A stretch of DNA of 64,000 nucleotides from an uncultured Actinomycetes bacterium (GTDB lineage Bacteria > Actinomycetota > UBA4738 > HRBIN12). Where the stretch lies: positions 690,692-754,691 of the forward strand of contig CAWHTI010000012.1 in the NCBI GenBank assembly GCA_963832225.1, in the 5' to 3' direction. Every line of letters begins with the position of its first letter. Position 1 is the first letter of the stretch. Under the pieces are notes generated by a model, which worked only from the letters and a program-made list of their open reading frames with translations, did not search any database and was not told the DNA's origin. Below are positions 54,991 through 64,000 of this stretch, piece by piece. Made by a program: the position numbers and the translations under genes.

Positions 54991-55575
54991 TCATTCCGTG
55001 GGTCTCCCGTCGAATCCCCGCTGAGCGAGCCCGCGCAGCGCGCGATGTTGCAGGACTCGAACGGTGCCTTGTCGCTTGGCGAGGACCTCGGCGACCTCCG
55101 AGACCGTGAGGCCGGCAACCACCCGCAGAAGGAGAACGTCCGCCTGATCGGGAGAGAGGGCGGTGAGTCGAGAGATCGTTCGGTCCGCTTCGATCCGGTT
55201 CACTGCCTCTTCCTCCGCGTCTCCGGTGGCCCCGAGCGCGGCGAGGACATCGGGCGGAACCGACACGGCGCGTCGACGCTCGACCTTCCGACGCAGGTCC
55301 AGCATCCGTCGCCGGGCGATCGTGAAGATCCAGGCGTGGAAGTCGCCCTCGTCTCCGGAGAACCGACGCAGACCTTGGGCGACGCCGATCCAGACCTCCG
55401 ATGCCAGGTCGTCAGCGGAGGTGGGCTCGTGCAGGGCGAGGTACCGCAGGAGTCGCGGCTGGAGATCTCGATAGATGGCGGCGAGCGCCCACTCGGCTCC
55501 CGTTCGAGCCGCGTCGAGGACGGCGGGAAAATCGCTTCCGATGGTCATCGAGGGGACCGGAAGTGTAACGCTCAT
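54991..55575 (-). CDS. ECF-subfamily RNA polymerase sigma-70 factor
   Basis: Region 2 (LRYLALHEPTSADDLASEVWIGV, FHAWIFTIARRRMLDLRR) and region 4 HTH (LSPDQADVLLLRVVAGLTVSEVAEVLAKRQGTVRVLQHRALRGL); AGGGGG RBS before ATG 55575. Confidence 0.8.
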   Translation of the reverse strand: MSVTLPVPSMTIGSDFPAVLDAARTGAEWALAAIYRDLQPRLLRYLALHEPTSADDLASEVWIGVAQGLRRFSGDEGDFHAWIFTIARRRMLDLRRKVERRRAVSVPPDVLAALGATGDAEEEAVNRIEADRTISRLTALSPDQADVLLLRVVAGLTVSEVAEVLAKRQGTVRVLQHRALRGLAQRGFDGRPTE

Positions 55576-55629
55576 CCCCCTCGGCGCGATGTCTTGAATA
55601 GAGGCCAACCCAGGACAGGAGGTGGATGG

Positions 55630-56037
55630 ATGAAGAAGCTGTTGACAGGTGCTCTCCTCATCGTGCTCTCGGTCGGAACGCTCACACTCGGAACGACGAC
55701 GGTGGCCCTCTCGATCGGCTGCACGATCACGGGCAGCAGCGCATCCGAGAAGATCTGGGGCACTAGGCATGCCGACGTGATCTGCGCTCAGGCGGGCAAC
55801 GATCGCATCATCGCCAGGCGCGGTCGCGACGTGCTGCGCGGCGCCGGTGGCCACGACCGCCTGGTCGCCAGGAGAGGACACGATCGCCTCTTCGGCGGCG
55901 CTCGTGGCGATCGTCTCGTCTCGGCTGATGGTGTCTCCGGCAACGACAGGGTCTTCGGTCGGAGCGGGCACGATGTGTGCCGCATCGACGAAGGGGACTT
56001 CACGTCCGGGTGCGAGCGCGTCGTGATCGTCTCTTAG
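55630..56037 (+). CDS. small secreted protein with degenerate GGxGxD (RTX-like) repeats
   Basis: Signal peptide MKKLLTGALLIVLSVGTLTLG; repeats GNDRIIARRG, GGHDRLVARRG, GGARGDRLVS, GNDRVFGRSG; divergent from ECF sigma gene (55-bp spacer). Confidence 0.5.
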   Translation: MKKLLTGALLIVLSVGTLTLGTTTVALSIGCTITGSSASEKIWGTRHADVICAQAGNDRIIARRGRDVLRGAGGHDRLVARRGHDRLFGGARGDRLVSADGVSGNDRVFGRSGHDVCRIDEGDFTSGCERVVIVS

Positions 56038-56556
56038 GCGAAGCGGTTTCGCACCAGTGCAAACCCGAGGCTCGGGCGATCCCCCCACATGGTCCGAAAC
56101 TCGGTGTGAGGCGGCGACCTGGGGTCTGGCGGAGATCTCTCCAACGACCCCGGGTTGCTGGCTTCACCGCACGACTCAGGCTGGAGTGCAGAGGTTTGCG
56201 AACGATGACCGATGCACCGATCGCCACCATATCGTTCACCTGACTTCATCCTGCTGACGGCCCGATCCTCGGCTGGAGCGCTCCCGTGGACAGCGTGTTC
56301 TCCACAGGCCTGTCGGCGATTCGGAGTCGTTGCGACGCCCCCACCCGGGGCGGCTCCCACGCAAGCGTGGTCCTTCCTGGTGCGCGGGACGACCGCTCGA
56401 CCGCGACCCTTCGAACATGGATGGGCCGTTCGACGTAACGCACGTGCGTCACACGGAGCGTGCCCCGCGTAGGGCAGCCAACTAGCGTCTGACACTCCGC
56501 TACGGGAGGAACCGACGGAGGTGGCTGGATCGATGCGAGGAGCAGAGGGAGTAGCG

Positions 56557-56637
56557 ATGGCCCCGGAGTCGACGCCCGCGAACGTCGAGGCCGTCCTCGA
56601 GGACCTTCCACCGACTATGGCCTGGAGCAACTCATGA
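56557..56637 (+). other. candidate 26-codon upstream ORF (MAPESTPANVEAVLEDLPPTMAWSNS) overlapping the epimerase start by ATGA
   Basis: GAGGGAG RBS 5 nt upstream of ATG; stop TGA overlaps epimerase ATG; speculative. Confidence 0.2.
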
Positions 56638-57650
56638 CGAAGCGAGTATTGGTCACGGGCGCGGGCGGATTCATCGGCCATCACCTCGTCAAATACTTGG
56701 TGAATCGCGGTTACTGGGTACGCGGGGTCGACATCAAGTACCCCGAGTACGAGACTACCTTCGCCCAGGATTTCCAGCGGGCAGACCTGCGCGAGTTCGA
56801 CAACTGCGTCGCGGCAGCGGCCGGAATGAACGAGGTCTATCACCTCGCGGCGGACATGGGCGGCATCGGCTATATCACCGAGTCGCACGCCGTGGTCACG
56901 CGTAACAACATCTTGATCGACGCCAACGTGCTGGGAGCCGCGCGACGAGCCGAGGTCGAGCTGATGTTCTACTCGTCCTCGGCATGCATCTATCCGATGT
57001 ACAAGCAGTACGAGGCTGACGTCACACCGCTCAAGGAGGAGGACGCCTACCCGGCAGATGCCGAGAAGGGATACGGCTGGGAGAAGCTGTGGATGGAACA
57101 GCTGTGCCAGTACTTCCTCGAGGACTACGGCCTGCAGACGCGGGTCGCCAGATTCCACAACGTGTACGGACCGCTCGGCACGTACGATGGAGGCCGGGAG
57201 AAGGCGCCGGCCGCCATCAGCCGCAAGGTCGCACTCGCGAACGAGGGCGACGAGATCGAGGTGTGGGGCGACGGCGAGCAGACTCGATCGTTCATGTACG
57301 TGGACGACTGTGTGGACGGGATCTACCGCCTGACCCAATCTGATCACCATGAGCCGCTCAACCTCGGGTCGGATGAGCTCATCACCATCAATGGGTTGGT
57401 CGACCTGATCTGCGGCGTCGCGGGCAAGACCCTCGTGAAGAAGCACGACCTCTCCAAGCCCCAAGGCGTGCGAGGGCGGAACAGCGACAATACGAAACTC
57501 CGGGAGGTTCTGGGATGGGAGCCGCACTCCTCCTTGCGGGAGGGGCTCGCCGAGACGTACGACTGGATCGAGAAGCAGCTCGTGGGGTCCGGTCGTGGAT
57601 CTTCGGGGCGCACATCGAGCAGCGTCGGCGCAACGGGAGCCAGTCTGTGA
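56634..57650 (+). CDS. NAD-dependent epimerase/dehydratase (GDP-mannose 3,5-epimerase-like sugar-nucleotide epimerase)
   Basis: Rossmann GAGGFIGHHLV, catalytic YxxxK region (YGWEKLWMEQLC), conserved MYVDDCVDGI; GC and codon usage visibly lower than upstream genes. Confidence 0.8.
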   Translation: MTKRVLVTGAGGFIGHHLVKYLVNRGYWVRGVDIKYPEYETTFAQDFQRADLREFDNCVAAAAGMNEVYHLAADMGGIGYITESHAVVTRNNILIDANVLGAARRAEVELMFYSSSACIYPMYKQYEADVTPLKEEDAYPADAEKGYGWEKLWMEQLCQYFLEDYGLQTRVARFHNVYGPLGTYDGGREKAPAAISRKVALANEGDEIEVWGDGEQTRSFMYVDDCVDGIYRLTQSDHHEPLNLGSDELITINGLVDLICGVAGKTLVKKHDLSKPQGVRGRNSDNTKLREVLGWEPHSSLREGLAETYDWIEKQLVGSGRGSSGRTSSSVGATGASL

Positions 57651-57689: not shown

Positions 57690-59441
57690 ATGCTCGGAGA
57701 CGTTGACGATGGTCGAACTCCCCCCTCCGCTCGAGTTCTCGTTGCTCTGCTGATCGCGAGCCTCTCTGTGCAGACGCTCGTGACAGCCGATGCGGTGCGC
57801 GCCGCGGTCACCATCCGAGTTCCTCAGGACTATGCGACCATCCAGGCGGCCGTGAACGCCGCATCGCCTGAAGACACGATCAAGGTCGCCCCGGGGACCT
57901 ACACCGAGAACGTGACGATCGATCGATCGATATCACTCGTGGCAGCGACGTACGATCAGAGCGATCCGCGGAACAACACGGCGATCTTGGACGGGGCCGG
58001 TGGGACCGTCGTCACGATCTCCAGGGGGATCGATCCGGGTCCCACGATCACAGGTTTCGTCATCCGCAACGGAAATAACGGGATCGCAGTCCAGAGTCCG
58101 GCGACCATCGAGCATTCCCATATCATCGATAATCAAGACGCTATCGACTACGTGAGAGGCGGAGGGGGGATCGCCGTCGGCAACGTCATGGAGCGATCCA
58201 TCGATGACAACATCGACAGCAACCATCCCACCGTCGATCTAACGATCGAGGACAACGAGATCCTGCAGGCAGGTGGCGATGGCATCGAAGTGCGACTGCA
58301 CGACGATGCGATCGCCGAGACGACGGTGATCACGATCCGTGGAAACGAGATCGTGGGAAATAGACAGGACGGCATCCAGATCATCGACTATTTCGATGAC
58401 ACGGACCGCCTGCTCGTCATCGAGCGGAACCTGATCAAGAGTGCGGGGTTGGCCGGCATCGGTCTGATGGACAACGGTGTAACCCGCGAGGACTTTCGCG
58501 CGGCTAGCATCCGTGAGCCCATCCGCGTGTTCCACAACACGTTCGTAGACAACGATCACGGAATCTCCGGCGGTGACAACCTGATCGCTCTCAACAACAT
58601 CTTCCAACACCACACCCTGGCGATGAAGAACGTCGACGCGAACTCCATCGCCAGCTACAACATCTTCTGGAACAATGCGGTCGACGCGCAGGGCAGCATC
58701 ATCGATGCGGCAACGACCCTCTCGGCCGATCCGCTCCTCGACGTAAGCAGCCAACTGCGGCCGGGCAGTCCGGCCATCGACGCTGGTACGGCGCACTTCG
58801 AGTGGCGCGGTGAGGTTGTCATGGACCAGCCCTCCGCGGCCTACTACGGCGCCGCGCCCGATCTCGGGTGGCTCGAGTACGTGCTAGGGCGCGTCACAGT
58901 CGCCGACTTCTCGTTCGAGCCAGAAGCCCTCCTGGTCAATCCTGGGAGCGTGGTGAAGTGGGTCTTCCGGGGACCCAGCTCGCACGCAGCGACCGACTCC
59001 ATCGGGCTCGGTCCCACGCGCGCCCCCCTATTCGACTCGGGACCAAAGGGCACCGGCGAGGTGTACAAGTTCAAGTTCGCGGCGGCCGGCCAGTACCCGT
59101 ATTCCTCGACGGCCGCGGCGCCCACGGCGATGAGCGGCACGATCACGGTTCCCGTCACCATCGCACCGATCAGGGGCTCCACCGCGACCCGATTCACGGT
59201 CACCTGGGCCTCGAAGAGCCTCTCGGGTTTCGGTTTCTCGGTCCAATCCCGGTTCAAGCCCGAGGGCTCCTCCTCGTTTACGACGTGGACGAGCTTCGGA
59301 CCCGTCCAGACCGCCCCGTCGGCGGTCTTCGTGCCGGATCGCGGTCCGGGCACGTATCAGTTCAGGTCACAACTTCGGAACGCAACGACCGGTGCGACGT
59401 CGTTGCGTTCCACGCCGACCTCCATCACCGTGACTTCCTGA
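57690..59441 (+). CDS. secreted right-handed parallel beta-helix (pectate-lyase/NosD-like) protein with C-terminal cupredoxin-like and Ig-like domains
   Basis: Signal peptide; beta-helix repeats (ITGFVIRNGNNGIAVQ, GGGIAVGNV, IRGNEIVGNRQDGIQI, NTFVDNDHGISGGDN, NIFWNNAVD); C-terminal domain resembling cupredoxin fold but without the Cys ligand. Confidence 0.6.
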   Translation: MLGDVDDGRTPPSARVLVALLIASLSVQTLVTADAVRAAVTIRVPQDYATIQAAVNAASPEDTIKVAPGTYTENVTIDRSISLVAATYDQSDPRNNTAILDGAGGTVVTISRGIDPGPTITGFVIRNGNNGIAVQSPATIEHSHIIDNQDAIDYVRGGGGIAVGNVMERSIDDNIDSNHPTVDLTIEDNEILQAGGDGIEVRLHDDAIAETTVITIRGNEIVGNRQDGIQIIDYFDDTDRLLVIERNLIKSAGLAGIGLMDNGVTREDFRAASIREPIRVFHNTFVDNDHGISGGDNLIALNNIFQHHTLAMKNVDANSIASYNIFWNNAVDAQGSIIDAATTLSADPLLDVSSQLRPGSPAIDAGTAHFEWRGEVVMDQPSAAYYGAAPDLGWLEYVLGRVTVADFSFEPEALLVNPGSVVKWVFRGPSSHAATDSIGLGPTRAPLFDSGPKGTGEVYKFKFAAAGQYPYSSTAAAPTAMSGTITVPVTIAPIRGSTATRFTVTWASKSLSGFGFSVQSRFKPEGSSSFTTWTSFGPVQTAPSAVFVPDRGPGTYQFRSQLRNATTGATSLRSTPTSITVTS

Positions 59442-59588
59442 GGACCGCGACGGCGATCCGGCACGCGGACCGGAAGGGACCTGCAGCTAGGCAAGTCGCT
59501 CGACGTCTTGGAGGTCGCTGCGGCGACGCAAGGCAACGCTTCGCCGTTGCTGCTTCCTCGCCGTCACGTGTGGTGCCGCAGGAGTCGA

Positions 59589-60470
59589 CTATCTCGCGTA
59601 CCCGAGCCGAGCGACGAGATCCGACGTTTCCCCGTCGAACGCTGCTTGGACCGCCGGTGTGAAGTGGTTGCGCCAATCCCCGGCAACGCCCTTCCGCAGC
59701 TTCGAACCCGTATCCTCTTGTCCCGGCTGGCGCCCGGAGAGGGCACGGAAGCTATACCGCGCCAGGAGGTCGGCGCGTTCGGCCGCCGAGAGCGAAACGC
59801 CGCAATGCTCGAGCAGCCGCTCCCACGATCGCTCGGCGTCCTCGCCGATCAGGTCTTCGTAGCGCACGAGGATGATGTGCGGCTCATCGACCCCGCTCCA
59901 GCTCCGGAGGGCGCCGAACAGGCCGTACGTGCCGAGTCGTTGGATGCTGTCGATCAGCCCCTGTTCCTTGTTCAGCGACGCGAGATGCTCGCGGGTCCGC
60001 TGCATGCCTCGGCTACTGTTCGTCGGGTGCGCGCTGACCGAGGAGAAGTACCAGCTGACGACGATATCGCGAGGGTCCCGGAGCACGAAGAACGCACGCC
60101 ACGGGTCCGCCTTGGGCAGCGCGGCGAAGCCTTCGTAGGGGATGTAGAGCGGTGACACGATCCTGCGGACAGGGAACGGCCGGTCGAACGAGATGTCACG
60201 GTACGGGCGGCTCCTGTCACCCGCGTCGAGCCGCGGACCATAGGCGTAGGTTCGAAGTCCTGTGACACGGTAGACCGTTGGATCAGCGAACACCTTGCGG
60301 ATCCACTGGCTGCCGGTCTTGTGGACGCAGCAGTGGTAGATGTTGCGGACCTCGCTGCGGTGTGCGACGTGCCGCAGACGCACACGGTTCTCCGCGAATG
60401 CCGCCTTCGCCCACGGAGGAACGACGTTGCGGAAGCGCTGATTCCGGAGTAGTCGCTCGTGAACGGACAC
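59589..60470 (-). CDS. sulfotransferase-family protein (PAPS-dependent)
   Basis: 5'-PSB loop CCVHKTGSQW and 3'-PB motif VLRDPRDIVVSWYF; GTG start 60470 chosen (AAAGG RBS); 294 aa. Confidence 0.7.
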   Translation of the reverse strand: MSVHERLLRNQRFRNVVPPWAKAAFAENRVRLRHVAHRSEVRNIYHCCVHKTGSQWIRKVFADPTVYRVTGLRTYAYGPRLDAGDRSRPYRDISFDRPFPVRRIVSPLYIPYEGFAALPKADPWRAFFVLRDPRDIVVSWYFSSVSAHPTNSSRGMQRTREHLASLNKEQGLIDSIQRLGTYGLFGALRSWSGVDEPHIILVRYEDLIGEDAERSWERLLEHCGVSLSAAERADLLARYSFRALSGRQPGQEDTGSKLRKGVAGDWRNHFTPAVQAAFDGETSDLVARLGYAR

Positions 60471-60490
60471 GTCGTCGACCTTTCGCGTAC

Positions 60491-62050
60491 CTACCTCAGA
60501 CGGATGACGCGCCGGGCTCGACTCAACAGCCACCTGCGCTGCACCTCGGACAACCCTCCGAAGACCGCGGCCGCCACCAAGACCACCCCCGAGAGAGCCG
60601 ACGCGACGACCAAACTCACCCACGTCCCGACCGTCACGACGGATCCCAGAGCGGCAGCCGCCCCGAAGAGCCCTGCCGTGACGAGTCCTGCTCGAAGCAT
60701 CGCCACGACCTGAGCAGAGGTCGGGATCGCCAGGATCCGACCGATCATCAGCGGATAGGTGACGCTCTGGACGGCTCGGCCCGCGATGAAGCCCGCGGCC
60801 ACGCCTCCGATGCCGAGGTCGAGCCGCGCGACGAGGAACCACGCGAAGCCGATGGACAGAGCGGCTGACAACAGCCCCAACAGCACCTTCCGACGGATGT
60901 TCAGCGTGAGGTCGATGATGTTCGCATCGACCCGGATGAACGTGAGCTGCAGGATCATCAGCACGATGAGCAGGGTCGGCCCCACGCCCGGGAAGTACCG
61001 CTGCCCGACCCACAACCGGAGGAAGGACTCCTCCCACAGCAGGACCCCTGCCCCGGCCACGGTCGCCATGAGCCAGGCCACCGCCATCGTCTCACTGCGT
61101 ACCCGTGCTGCCCGAACCATCTCTCCCGCGCCGATGAGGCCGCCGAGACCGGGCGCCATGCCGAAGATCACGCTGGTGACCGCTGAGGTGATCGTGAGCG
61201 GGATGAATCGAGTGAGCGAGTAGGTCGTGACCTGCGTCGCAGAGCCGGCGATGCCCAGCACCACGATATCGCCGCCCATCGTGATCCTCGTCACGAAGTT
61301 CCACAGCAGGAACCACCAGCTTAGCCCCAAGAACCGACGAACCGCAGATGCCTCCGGTCTGGCGACACCGAACCAGGGGATGTATCTGCGGGCCAGCCAG
61401 AGGAACAGCGCACCGCTCATCACCGTGACCACGACGGTGGCCACGGCGAGGCCGACCAACCCGGCCCCCGACACCGCCGCCACGACCATCAACCCACCGC
61501 CGACGAACTCGAAGGCGGCCGTGATGCCCATACGCTTGTAGCCGAGGTTCTCGCCTGCGAGCGCGGCCCACGGGATGTTCGTGAGACCCATGATCACCAC
61601 GCCCGCGACCAAGACCGCCGCGGTCAGTCGAACGACGGCGTAGTCGGCGGGTGGCACGTGCAGCCAGATCGGCGCGAACCATCCCACGACCGCGCCGATC
61701 GGAAGGAGGACCGGGATGAAGATCAGCCACACCACGATCGCGCTCGCGACGGCTTGTCGCTTGACCTGGAGGTCGTCGGAGGACTGGCGGTTCGCGATGA
61801 ACCACTTGAGGGCCTCGCTCGGCCGCCCGCCTGCGGGGTTGGTCTGACCGATCAGGCGGTAGACGACCTGCCAGTGTCCGAACGTGACGTCTCCCAGGTA
61901 CCGCAGCAAGAGCGGGTTGACGACGAAGCCGACGATGGCTCGGGCGCCCTGGTTCAGCGCAGTGGCGACCGAATTCAGCGACGCCTTCTTCGTCAAGCTG
62001 CCGTCGGAGAAGACCCTGGACCTGAAGCGAGTCACGAGATCGGCACCCAT
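60491..62050 (-). CDS. polysaccharide biosynthesis protein / Wzx-like MOP-family flippase
   Basis: About 14 TM helices, 519 aa, Wzx/MOP exporter architecture. Confidence 0.7.
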   Translation of the reverse strand: MGADLVTRFRSRVFSDGSLTKKASLNSVATALNQGARAIVGFVVNPLLLRYLGDVTFGHWQVVYRLIGQTNPAGGRPSEALKWFIANRQSSDDLQVKRQAVASAIVVWLIFIPVLLPIGAVVGWFAPIWLHVPPADYAVVRLTAAVLVAGVVIMGLTNIPWAALAGENLGYKRMGITAAFEFVGGGLMVVAAVSGAGLVGLAVATVVVTVMSGALFLWLARRYIPWFGVARPEASAVRRFLGLSWWFLLWNFVTRITMGGDIVVLGIAGSATQVTTYSLTRFIPLTITSAVTSVIFGMAPGLGGLIGAGEMVRAARVRSETMAVAWLMATVAGAGVLLWEESFLRLWVGQRYFPGVGPTLLIVLMILQLTFIRVDANIIDLTLNIRRKVLLGLLSAALSIGFAWFLVARLDLGIGGVAAGFIAGRAVQSVTYPLMIGRILAIPTSAQVVAMLRAGLVTAGLFGAAAALGSVVTVGTWVSLVVASALSGVVLVAAAVFGGLSEVQRRWLLSRARRVIRLR

Positions 62051-62057
62051 CGGGTCG

Positions 62058-63584
62058 TCAGATCCTCGACCACACGGCGGACTTGATCTCGGCGAGCACC
62101 TCGTCCTTCGGGCGACTCGCATCGATCACGACCGCGGGGAGCCGGTCCCAGTCCAGACGCCGGATTTCCTCGCACCGGCTGCGTACGACGTCCTCGTCGT
62201 CGATGCCGCGCTTGCGCTCGACCGCGAGATCGGGATCAACGTTCAGGACGACCAGGATGTCCGGATCGAGGATCCTCGCGTAGTAGTGCCGCTCGAGTCG
62301 AGCCAGGGACCTCACGAGCGGGCTCCCTCCGGGGGTGTCCAGCATCTTGCCCGCCAGTGGTCCGTCCATCAGCTCGATCTCGCGAAGCGGGAAGCGATCG
62401 CTGACGACGATCCCGCCGGCGGTGGCGAACCGACGGGCTCGTCGATACATCAAGTACCGGTCGCGCGCGACCGTGACCTGTTGGACCAACCTCGCGGATG
62501 CGCGACGGCTCATGGACCGTCCGTCCGAGGCAGCCAGCGAAGCGCCGGAGACGGACGGTTCCTTCATGAGTCCACGCACGCCTCGTCGCCAGACACGCCT
62601 CACGACCGACGAGGTCAATGAGCTCGGAGGCTGCCCGAGGTGCACGCGGGTCGTCGCGAAGTCCTTCGAGAGCCAGGCGTGGAGCTCGTTCACGGCCGTG
62701 GACTTTCCCGCTCCATCGCCTCCGACCACGGCGATCAGGACTCCACCGTCCAGCCGAGCCCGAGGCGACGGCCGGTGCAACGCGTGGCGGCGGACCATGA
62801 TGCGCACCCTCCGTGACAGCCTCAGGACGGCGTCGGTACCGTGCCGGCGCCGTGCGTAGGGCGCCAACGCACGTTCCAAGCGATGGGCGGTTCGGATCCG
62901 GACCCAGCCGGTGGCCCCGCCTTCGACGCACCGTCGGCACCGATCCCACAGGGCATCGCCGATGAACGGCAAGTGCTCGCGCACGACGGCCCGCACCTCC
63001 TCGAGGTCCGCACGCTGTGTAAGGAAGTCGAGCTCCCGGGTCTCGCTGGCCGCGAGCCGCCCCTTGTGCGACGCGATCGCGTCCCACGTCGAGTGTTTCA
63101 GCACCATCCGCACGACGAAGGCGGCGAGCTCGAACTCCGGAGCCGGGATCGGAAGCGGAAGCACCCCGTTGCGATCGACCGAGGCGAGGTAGGCGTCCTC
63201 GATCGGGAGCCGGTAGTTCTTCGTTGTGTCGTCGCCGAGCACGAGCTGGTAATGAGCGTGGATGTGCACGAGCTTCCCGGACGCCCCATCGAGCCCGTAC
63301 GAGTGGAACACACCCGGCACCCGTTTCATGGACGGCGACCGAGCATCCTTGAAGCCCAGGCGGCGGATCGCCACGACGAATCGCTGAGCGTCCTGGCCAC
63401 GTACCAGCAGGTCGAGGTCGCTGTCGCCTCGAGCCGAGCGCTCCAGCACGTCATTGCTCTTCCAGTGGCAGTACGCGATCTCCTCTGCGGCCAGGGCATC
63501 ACACAATCTGACGACGAGCGCCAGCGCCACGGCGTACCGATCGTCGAGATCGGTCTCGGCTGGCACGGTCGATGCGCGCGTCAA
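62058..63584 (-). CDS. fusion protein: Pol-beta-like minimal nucleotidyltransferase domain + thymidylate-kinase-like P-loop kinase domain
   Basis: N-term NTase signature ERSARGDSDLDLLV (hG[GS]...SDhDhhV); C-term Walker A VVGGDGAGKSTAV, DRF motif (IVVSDRFPLRE), TMK-like LID/PGG loop (LDTPGGSPLVRS); 508 aa intact. Confidence 0.55.
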   Translation of the reverse strand: MTRASTVPAETDLDDRYAVALALVVRLCDALAAEEIAYCHWKSNDVLERSARGDSDLDLLVRGQDAQRFVVAIRRLGFKDARSPSMKRVPGVFHSYGLDGASGKLVHIHAHYQLVLGDDTTKNYRLPIEDAYLASVDRNGVLPLPIPAPEFELAAFVVRMVLKHSTWDAIASHKGRLAASETRELDFLTQRADLEEVRAVVREHLPFIGDALWDRCRRCVEGGATGWVRIRTAHRLERALAPYARRRHGTDAVLRLSRRVRIMVRRHALHRPSPRARLDGGVLIAVVGGDGAGKSTAVNELHAWLSKDFATTRVHLGQPPSSLTSSVVRRVWRRGVRGLMKEPSVSGASLAASDGRSMSRRASARLVQQVTVARDRYLMYRRARRFATAGGIVVSDRFPLREIELMDGPLAGKMLDTPGGSPLVRSLARLERHYYARILDPDILVVLNVDPDLAVERKRGIDDEDVVRSRCEEIRRLDWDRLPAVVIDASRPKDEVLAEIKSAVWSRI

Positions 63585-63717
63585 CCCGCGACCCCGACGG
63601 GGGATCGGGGTAGAGACCCGGCTCGCGAAACGGCCATCACCCTCTCACGGTATGCAACCCCCGTCGGCCGCGCACCGGTGCCCGGGGGTATCTCTCGTAC
63701 GTCAACAGCAGTAGGGA

Positions 63718-64000
63718 TCATGGGCGGATCGCGTCGGTGCGACGATCAACCTCGATCGGAGCGCGGGGCGGTATCCACGCCCAGCCGGCGGGAAAGACGT
63801 CGTCGCGCGTGTACACGTTCAGGTCGAACGCTTCCAGGATCTCCATCGCACGCGCCTCTTCGTCCGCGTCGACCTTGCGCCGCCATTTGTTGACGAGATC
63901 TGGGCGCCTGTCGACGCCGGTCTCGAACAACAGGTGCTGCGTCTCCTCGCTCGACTTGATCCTGACGTTCACCGAGGGCACGGCGAGCGCGTCCCTCATA
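63718..64000 (-). CDS. hypothetical protein, 5'-partial (start beyond window end)
   Basis: Open minus-strand frame from window edge to stop at 63718; no recognisable motif. Confidence 0.3.
   Translation of the reverse strand, partial: MRDALAVPSVNVRIKSSEETQHLLFETGVDRRPDLVNKWRRKVDADEEARAMEILEAFDLNVYTRDDVFPAGWAWIPPRAPIEVDRRTDAIRP

Follow-up and report, generated by a model that had tools for sequence, protein, structure and literature searches.

The 64,000-nucleotide stretch of contig CAWHTI010000012.1 analysed here (the window), from an uncultured Actinomycetes bacterium, carries on its minus strand a gene in which a Pol-beta-type nucleotidyltransferase (NTase) is joined through a helical domain to a kinase resembling thymidylate kinase (TMK). 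A first interpretation made from the letters alone (the sequence-only reading) had picked out this fusion next to a sulfotransferase gene and a flippase gene, and had proposed that it phosphorylates and nucleotidylates a substrate on a route feeding glycan decoration. The fusion gene and its parts are as follows.

62058-63584, minus strand: fusion gene (Pol-beta-type NTase, helical domain, TMK-like kinase), from the open reading frame (ORF), Pfam, homologs and an AlphaFold2 model.
63141-63527, minus strand: NTase core with a mixed alpha/beta Pol-beta fold, residues 20-148, from the AlphaFold2 model.
63402-63464, minus strand: NTase motif W41-K42-S43-x12-D56-L-D58-LLV with the metal-binding acidic pair, from residue counts over 89 representatives.
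63252-63266, minus strand: H107-I-H109-A-H111, conserved histidines alternating along a predicted beta-strand (104-111), from the alignment and the AlphaFold2 model.
62781-63140, minus strand: all-helical domain directly after the NTase core, residues 149-268, from the AlphaFold2 model and the alignment.
62061-62759, minus strand: TMK-like P-loop kinase domain, residues 276-508, from Pfam and the model.
62697-62726, minus strand: Walker A or TMK-type P-loop VGGDGAGKST with an invariant Asp290, from residue counts over 89 representatives.
62391-62399, minus strand: D396-R397-F, the 'DR[YFH]' motif of TMK, from residue counts over 89 representatives.

The fusion ORF encodes 508 amino acids (aa) if TTG 63584 is the start, and ends with a TGA stop (62058-62060); a GTG at 63566, six codons in, would give 502 aa, which is the called length of the homolog P0001 (95% identical). 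The choice of start is irrelevant to function, because the first ~20 residues vary among homologs and are predicted to be disordered. Against 5.8 billion proteins the sequence has at least 1716 matches, and since the best 120 homologs are nearly all full length at E<=1e-145 (356-583 aa, 50-95% identity), the ORF is a real gene; an exact-sequence lookup of the window protein returned no record. The window is GC-rich (64-74%), and a scan of 59300-64000 for promoters and terminators gave nothing above the expectation from shuffling. No transmembrane segment is predicted in the window protein, which by this prediction is soluble and cytoplasmic.

The AlphaFold2 model of the window protein, built on 26 homologs (pLDDT 87, pTM 0.84), has three parts: an alpha/beta core (~20-148), an all-helical region (149-268) and a P-loop alpha/beta domain (276-508). 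The core has the minimal alpha/beta NTase fold of the Pol-beta superfamily, and its K-[SG]-x12-D-x-D stretch matches the classical Pol-beta motif h-G-[GS]-x9-13-D-h-[DE]-h. Residues were counted over 89 cluster representatives aligned to the window protein at 31-60% identity. The acidic pair is present throughout this alignment with few exceptions (D56 in 86, D58 in all 89), as are W41 (87) and K42 (86), in agreement with the DSDLDLLV signature of the sequence-only reading; the glycine of 'RSARG', which had been counted as part of that signature, is not the conserved motif residue, whereas the conserved small-residue position of G[GS] is filled by S43 (S in 68, G in 21), within W41-K42-S43. 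D99, kept in 86 representatives at the end of predicted strand 92-99, is a likely candidate for the third carboxylate of the site, and E129 is kept in 84. The three histidines (H107 in 81, H109 in 77, H111 in 79; ~88% of the family) could form a metal or phosphate site. Their H-x-H-x-H pattern is the same as that of the histidine-triad (HIT) nucleotide-binding motif, yet the folds are unrelated. In the helical domain R159 (82), position 163 (K in 67, R in 16) and E184 (81) are kept, and E152 is also conserved.

The closest sequence family of this N-terminal domain is Pfam NTP_transf_5 (PF14907; uncharacterised nucleotidyltransferases), which matches residues 21-164 of the window protein at 15.1 bits (E 0.017), below the cut-off of 31.2; the homolog P0256 scores 29.4 bits, and 62 of the 89 representatives match at E<=0.01 (best E 5e-8). 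By the curated threshold the window domain is therefore not a member of PF14907, and on these scores it reads as a divergent lineage related to it. Its top structural neighbours are the toxin MenT1 and the antibiotic-modifying enzymes ANT(2'') and LnuA, with sequence identities of 10-14% to MenT/AbiEii (DUF1814), ANT(2'')-Ia and LnuA, and the domain is a Pol-beta-type NTase of the MenT/ANT(2'')/PF14907 kind. Such matches would suit a toxin or defence element resembling MenT/AbiE, or an antibiotic-inactivating enzyme with two activities (ANT/Lnu-like NTase and kinase), that merely happens to be located in a variable surface-polysaccharide island. However, the fusion differs from MenT, ANT and LnuA in its fused kinase, in the extra conserved H-x-H-x-H strand and in the absence of an antitoxin or resistance context. 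No antitoxin-like partner is seen, its neighbours being a second kinase (kin2, described below), a flippase, sulfotransferases and glycosyltransferases; its operonic order with flippase and kin2 is kept over seven phyla, and fusions to the flippase Wzx occur. There was also no significant PADLOC match, so that the antiphage context entertained in the sequence-only reading drew no support. We consider a toxin, defence or resistance role extremely improbable.

In the C-terminal half, Pfam Thymidylate_kin (PF02223) matches residues 288-379 at 31 bits, above its cut-off of 27, with an alignment limited to model positions 3-90 of 185, and 72 representatives match it at E<=0.01. The G-x-[DE]-G-x-G-K-[ST]-T P-loop and the DR[YFH] motif are shared with thymidylate kinase, and a P-loop with Asp followed by DR[FY] constitutes a thymidylate-kinase signature. 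G288, D290, G291 and G293 are each invariant, K294 is kept in 88 and positions 295/296 are [ST]/[TS]; position 396 is D in 76 and E in 13, and R397 is invariant. The Walker A GGDGAGKST and the DRF reported from the letters alone are hence both present and conserved. At aa 414-416, where the sequence varies among homologs, the accompanying 'PGG LID-like loop' is a chance match; judged from the alignment, R457 (89) and position 458 (K in 59, R in 25) are the conserved basic LID-like residues. Further conserved positions are H315 (87), G317 (89), 318 (K in 60, R in 24) and P319 (88), which form the family-specific motif H315-x-G-[KR]-P, together with R374 (83), D375 (85), R376 (88), R470 (87) and D488 (84); M-D-G-P is a second family-specific motif. 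The NMP-binding middle of the domain gives no sequence alignment to TMK, and structurally the kinase half ranks closer to TMK than to APS kinase. In true TMK the P-loop Asp touches the 3'-OH of the bound nucleotide, which makes the invariant D290 a hint that the acceptor resembles a nucleotide.

The PF02223 score, and the automatic name 'thymidylate kinase' that many homologs carry at JGI, would fit a true dTMP kinase that supplies dTDP/dTTP for dTDP-sugars. However, the window protein falls far below both dTMP-kinase equivalog cut-offs (TIGR00041, 29.2 against 83.25 bits; PRK07933, 23.4 against 193), the PF02223 alignment covers only the first half of the model, and the segment after DRF, P-x6-MDGP, looks unlike the TMK base-binding segment. 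This explanation, which would also leave the obligatory NTase fusion and the polysaccharide context unexplained, is scarcely credible.

Since 72 of the 89 representatives match PF02223 and 62 match PF14907, the NTase-TMK architecture is a property of the whole family, and catalytic-type residues are kept in both halves, in line with the sequence-only reading. Its statement that no characterised protein has this architecture also stands after library and literature searches: no single-function family matches the protein end to end, no solved structure chain spans both NTase and kinase domains, and searches of PDB by sequence, whether with the window protein, the family profile or the kin2 profile, returned at most P-loop or weak TMK matches. 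The fusion is, on the other hand, not the 'unusual' one it was taken for. An exhaustive HMMER scan of 1.84 billion representatives (50% identity) gave 2657 clusters at E<=1e-3, 1992 at E<=1e-10 and 931 at E<=1e-30, and among the 150 matches listed the fusion is full length down to ~35% identity; over the family it stays so down to ~31%. For comparison of gene neighbourhoods we used the best 80 loci from a pattern-limited scan with one genome per GTDB species; they come from seven phyla (Actinomycetota, Chloroflexota, Cyanobacteria, Acidobacteriota, Gemmatimonadota, Planctomycetota and, as Gammaproteobacteria, Proteobacteria). Carriers include cultured Blastococcus and Modestobacter (Actinomycetota), Calothrix NIES-2100 and Tolypothrix FACHB-123 (Cyanobacteria) and Methylobacter marinus A45 (Gammaproteobacteria), and the fusion is also found on a plasmid of the alphaproteobacterium Chelatococcus daeguensis, where RefSeq labels it 'hypothetical protein'. 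Apart from the JGI name, homologs are called 'hypothetical protein' or 'nucleotidyltransferase family protein'; Pfam, NCBIfam and PGAP hold no specific name for the family, and in the literature on PF14907, on NTase-TMK fusions and on polysaccharide clusters we found no study of it. The family is common yet unnamed.

The genes next to the fusion in the window are the following.

60491-62050, minus strand: Wzx-type oligosaccharide flippase, 519 aa, with at least 10 hydrophobic segments, from the ORF and Pfam; the ortholog in locus L089 is 519 aa long and has PF13440.
59589-60470, minus strand: sulfotransferase (Sulfotransfer_1), ~293 aa from GTG 60470, which lies 20 nucleotides past the flippase stop, from Pfam.
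63718-63999, minus strand: 3' end of an upstream sulfotransferase-like gene that runs off the window, with orthologs of 329-331 aa, from a sulfotransferase profile match at 63721-63999.

The flippase ATG (62050) lies 7 nucleotides past the fusion stop codon. Close relatives at 75-95% identity (loci L001/2, L086 and L089) reveal the genes past the window end. Their order is a Wzz/Wzc co-polymerase, the Wzy polymerase, family 4 glycosyltransferases (GT4), sulfotransferases, a 255-285-aa protein without a Pfam match, kin2, a sulfotransferase-like gene, the fusion, the Wzx flippase and a sulfotransferase, followed by a beta-helix gene on the opposite strand; L089 reproduces the window gene order exactly. 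The gene called kin2 encodes a second P-loop kinase of 227-246 aa, weakly AAA_33/AAA_18-like, which in this lineage lies just past the window end and was absent from the sequence-only reading; it is a constant partner of the fusion. We considered kin2 as a close paralog of the fusion's kinase domain and rejected this, the hhalign alignment of the kin2 profile to that domain being confined to the P-loop; because the P-loop is the sole shared part, the two are different kinases.

Neighbours were counted across all loci with home-made profiles derived from the neighbours themselves, run against six-frame stop-to-stop ORFs; because of these profiles and ORFs, and of the pattern-limited locus set, the following counts are approximate and probably undercounts. 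Directly downstream of the fusion lies kin2 in 35 of 69 loci and Wzx in 14 of 69, and one or the other lies at most 3 kb downstream in 45 of 58. Among the 44 loci whose flanks extend 8 kb or more each way, 42 hold polysaccharide-assembly genes, 37 Wzx (84%), 36 Wzy and 31 kin2 (70%), which bears out the glycan-decoration context proposed earlier. Other same-strand neighbours (n=126, Pfam census) are mostly NDP-sugar epimerases and dehydratases, Wzy_C, Wza (Poly_export), family 2 glycosyltransferases and regulators, with GT4 also seen. A full Wzx/Wzy set (Wzx, Wzy, Wzz/Wzc, an initiating phosphoglycosyl transferase and glycosyltransferases) is present in L001, L003, L086, L018, L031 and L088. 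The arrangement varies in detail: Calothrix has fusion, fusion, kin2, Wzx, Wzy, GT4, GT4, YdjC and UDP-glucose dehydrogenase, Methylobacter has Bac_transf, fusion, kin2, a pectate-lyase-like gene, two epimerases, Wzx, Wzy and GT4, and Chelatococcus has Wzc, fusion, an 'AAA family ATPase' (kin2) and the flippase within an XrtA/PEP-CTERM polysaccharide locus. The Chelatococcus locus (L088; 92369-111262 of the 535-kb plasmid pTAD1 of C. daeguensis) also holds a FemAB-family protein and an XrtA-system polysaccharide deacetylase.

The association with the flippase and kin2 can be covalent. P0204 (1054 aa) and P0256 (962 aa) comprise Wzx (Polysacc_synt_3), NTase and TMK in one chain, and five proteins of 701-737 aa (P0145, P0219, P0246, P0248 and P0260) carry a further P-loop kinase domain behind the TMK domain; in P0246 the extra domain is homologous to kin2 (hhalign with the kin2 profile, probability 99.7%, E 1e-26). 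Fusions to both partners are strong evidence that the fusion, kin2 and Wzx act together at the cytoplasmic face of the membrane. Eight loci contain two or three paralogous fusion copies, often matched by the copy number of kin2, which is a pattern typical of tailoring enzymes. These are L018 (8459-11461; a tandem pair in Calothrix NIES-2100), L030, L056, L065, L071, L013, L015 and L024. A stand-alone TMK-like gene lies 5-7 kb downstream in L026, L064 and L073-L076.

We are confident that the fusion serves Wzx/Wzy polysaccharide assembly as an active accessory enzyme. The tight linkage and the occasional fusion to Wzx might alternatively reflect a regulatory or gating module that senses or makes a nucleotide signal, or serves as a checkpoint on flippase action. 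Such a role, general and not tied to particular sugars, would account for a trio kept across clusters with very different glycosyltransferase sets, and mycobacterial MurJ/MviN, in which a cytoplasmic kinase-like domain (a pseudokinase) is fused to a MOP-family flippase, provides a comparable case and a precedent for the covalent link. However, catalytic-type residues are kept in both domains of the fusion, which are hence not pseudo-enzymes, and no sensor or receiver domain is attached. Two or three paralogs per cluster would be unusual for a regulator, and the best structural matches are NTases that modify substrates rather than enzymes that make signals. Regulation is accordingly improbable.

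In contrast to the flippase link, which is robust, the sulfotransferases stressed in the sequence-only reading are lineage-specific. A sulfotransferase of any kind, including the Gal-3-O-sulfotransferase-like family found beside kin2, was detected in 14 of the 44 well-flanked loci, and a gene-by-gene reading of the Calothrix and Methylobacter clusters found none in either. This bears on whether the fusion could be a non-orthologous PAPS synthase (3'-phosphoadenosine-5'-phosphosulfate), its NTase making adenosine-5'-phosphosulfate (APS) from sulfate and its TMK-like domain phosphorylating the 3'-OH to give PAPS. The nucleotidylate-then-3'-phosphorylate logic fits, and the fusion lies between sulfotransferase genes in the window and its close relatives, with a 4-nucleotide overlap with the upstream one in L001; some clusters hold 4-6 sulfotransferases. 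Lasso-peptide clusters also combine a kinase, a PF14907-like NTase and a sulfotransferase (PMC8498205). Against this reading, most loci lack a detectable sulfotransferase, the fusion matches no APS-kinase or ATP-sulfurylase family in Pfam or NCBIfam, and its kinase half is structurally nearer to TMK than to APS kinase. PAPS synthesis is thus very improbable, and we know of no Pol-beta NTase with sulfate as acceptor.

The sulfotransferase-rich clusters are of interest in their own right. Locus L003 (53% identity) holds five sulfotransferase genes and an initiating Bac_transf gene. Four consecutive sulfotransferase genes lie behind the flippase, plus one ahead of the fusion, in L003 (13089-16805) and L006 (3453-7533), both from uncultured Actinomycetota. 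Since sulfated bacterial exopolysaccharides are on record almost solely from cyanobacteria (PMC13390465), the number of sulfotransferases makes these two clusters strong candidates for heavily sulfated actinobacterial polymers. A recent paper on wps-1, a putative sulfated-polysaccharide cluster of Actinoplanes, makes no mention of a homolog of the fusion. The conserved 255-285-aa protein directly upstream of kin2 (L001 7433-8287, L003 7168-8010, L086 7368-8135, L089 301-1158) has no match in Pfam, NCBIfam or PDB; its motifs DGFxRSAGTFA, RVAHHMH and R-x-PEPTxxS look by eye like the two PAPS-binding motifs of sulfotransferases, and it may represent an unrecognised sulfotransferase family. Right after kin2, loci of Chloroflexota, Acidobacteriota and Actinomycetota carry a family of ~270 aa (L013 13462-14274, L015 8746-9558, L025 12490-13173, L017 17549-18400, L054 8231-9079) with HINKTAGTT and RDP motifs and weak to moderate Pfam matches to Gal-3-O-sulfotransferase/Sulfotransfer_2. 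PDB profile searches with two conserved neighbours, A6 and A7, gave no match, A6 being Gal-3-O-sulfotransferase-like by Pfam. That the galactose-3-O-sulfotransferase family of animals has bacterial homologs is noteworthy in itself.

Three further genes lie at the edge of the cluster in the window. The product of 57690-59441 (plus strand; 583 aa) begins with a hydrophobic segment, continues as a right-handed beta-helix (Beta_helix/NosD) and ends in a cupredoxin domain of the plastocyanin/azurin type; its gene is convergent with the sulfotransferase gene and also trails the cluster in the 95%-identical relative L089, and the domains suggest that it may be an exported lyase or hydrolase of polysaccharides with an unusual copper-protein-like module. 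The gene at 56634-57650 (plus strand) encodes an NAD-dependent epimerase/dehydratase (Epimerase, E 1e-46; best NCBIfam match GDP-L-fucose synthase, far under its cut-off) and is probably a precursor-sugar gene. A 365-aa ORF at 54991-56088 (minus strand), whose C-terminal half reads by eye as ECF-type sigma factor-like, would mark the cluster end.

The fusion thus probably marks an undescribed chemical step in the making of these sugar polymers. We infer the activity of both domains, the substrate, the order of steps and the product along the following lines. A mechanism is proposed where the fusion and kin2, beside Wzx at the cytoplasmic face of the membrane, would act on the finished repeat unit linked to undecaprenyl diphosphate. 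A kinase step would make or extend a phosphate using ATP and the NTase step would transfer an NMP or phospho-linked group, so that a phosphate- or nucleotide-linked group is installed on the repeat unit just before flipping; the flippase would then export the modified unit. In the window lineage, neighbouring sulfotransferases would also sulfate these repeat units. As a whole, this ATP/NTP-dependent modification of the lipid-linked repeat unit is a tentative proposal, and we hold it at somewhat less than even confidence. The two-step phosphorylation and nucleotidylation of the sequence-only reading is plausible chemistry and could run in either order: the substrate may be nucleotidylated and the nucleotide then phosphorylated, as in APS to PAPS or dephospho-CoA to CoA, which fits Asp290, or it may be phosphorylated and the phosphate then capped.

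Precedents for parts of this proposal exist elsewhere. LpxK is a P-loop kinase whose substrate is a lipid-linked glycan at the inner membrane face, the enzymes ANT(2'') and LnuA are Pol-beta NTases that nucleotidylate sugar hydroxyls, and WbdD, the kinase-methyltransferase that terminates the O9a O-antigen, is a precedent for phosphorylating a glycan and then capping the phosphate. The WbdD and MviN domains have eukaryotic-like kinase folds, unlike the fusion; WbdD belongs to an ABC-transporter pathway, and the MviN domain is catalytically dead and regulatory. The second order of steps fits the PsmK/PsmN pair of the lasso peptide pseudomycoidin, in which the P-loop kinase PsmK phosphorylates a Ser and the uncharacterised NTase PsmN adds a hexose to that phosphate (PMC6993621; PMC8498205). 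Of the NTases whose function has been probed, PsmN comes nearest to the N-terminal domain. PsmN was modelled on the ANT(2'') structure 4xje; like the N-terminal domain of the fusion it has a D-x-D pair, which is required, and its step follows phosphorylation of the substrate by a P-loop kinase (PMC6993621). Our comparison runs through the shared ANT(2'') template, not through sequence, and PsmN differs in being a stand-alone enzyme of a peptide pathway, with a kinase partner that is HPr-kinase-like rather than TMK-like. The NTases of lasso clusters are putative PF14907 members, and PsmN is a candidate member.

Several points weigh against tailoring at the flippase. About 16% of the well-flanked loci have no flippase within 8 kb, and the usual target of a TMK-type kinase is the phosphate of a nucleotide rather than a sugar hydroxyl. 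We know of no polysaccharide of known structure from a fusion-carrying cluster, and hence of no candidate modification. To our knowledge, all well-known fusions of a kinase and an NTase (HldE, FKP, PAPS synthase, CoA synthase (PPAT and DPCK) and NadR) make soluble activated donors or cofactors, although their NTase halves are Rossmann-like (HxGH) or ATP-sulfurylase, not Pol-beta, and none is linked to a flippase.

The last point is a precedent for soluble donor synthesis, in which the fusion, with kin2, would activate a free compound X with a nucleotide, either through X-P to NDP-X or through X-NMP to 3'-phospho-X-NMP, and a separate transferase would use the product to decorate the polysaccharide. 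Asp290 would suit the nucleotide-containing acceptor of such a route, again as in APS to PAPS and dephospho-CoA to CoA, and polysaccharide clusters commonly hold their own precursor-synthesis genes. However, the characterised Pol-beta NTases with small-molecule substrates that we know of, such as ANT and Lnu, act on hydroxyls of the final target and build no NDP-X. No conserved candidate transferase accompanies the trio, and donor synthesis would leave the fusion to the flippase and the near-constant flippase adjacency without obvious reason. In one family of phosphonate gene clusters, genes for a 'thymidylate kinase' and a PF14907 NTase border that for PEP mutase (PMC8942020), as would suit the activation of a small molecule. 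We regard donor synthesis as unlikely, and as less likely than tailoring of the lipid-linked unit.

A bolder form of the tailoring proposal is that the fusion, kin2 and flippase are an unrecognised three-part machine that tags repeat units, with a dedicated Wzx subfamily that needs the tag for export. The tag could be an O-nucleotidyl, a 3'-phospho-nucleotidyl or a pyrophosphate-linked group. We consider this doubtful; if true, the Wzx/Wzy pathway in seven phyla would gain a substrate-licensing step so far undescribed, and polysaccharides a new modification class. Both domain superfamilies were already known, as were bifunctional kinase-NTase enzymes as a kind; new here are the combination of a Pol-beta NTase with a TMK-like kinase, the size of the family, its fixed partnership with kin2 and Wzx, and its lack of a curated name or study.

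The question lends itself to direct testing, since several carriers are in culture (Methylobacter marinus A45, Calothrix NIES-2100, Tolypothrix FACHB-123, Blastococcus, Modestobacter and Chelatococcus daeguensis TAD1). Most bacterial O-antigens, capsules and biofilm exopolysaccharides are products of Wzx/Wzy pathways, whose components are usually regarded as fully listed; the three-gene module described here is conserved from Actinomycetota to Proteobacteria. If it modifies lipid-linked repeat units, it would bring new polysaccharide chemistry and maybe a new determinant of flippase specificity, which would matter for biofilm biology, for glyco-engineering and for the search for heparin-like materials among sulfated bacterial polysaccharides.

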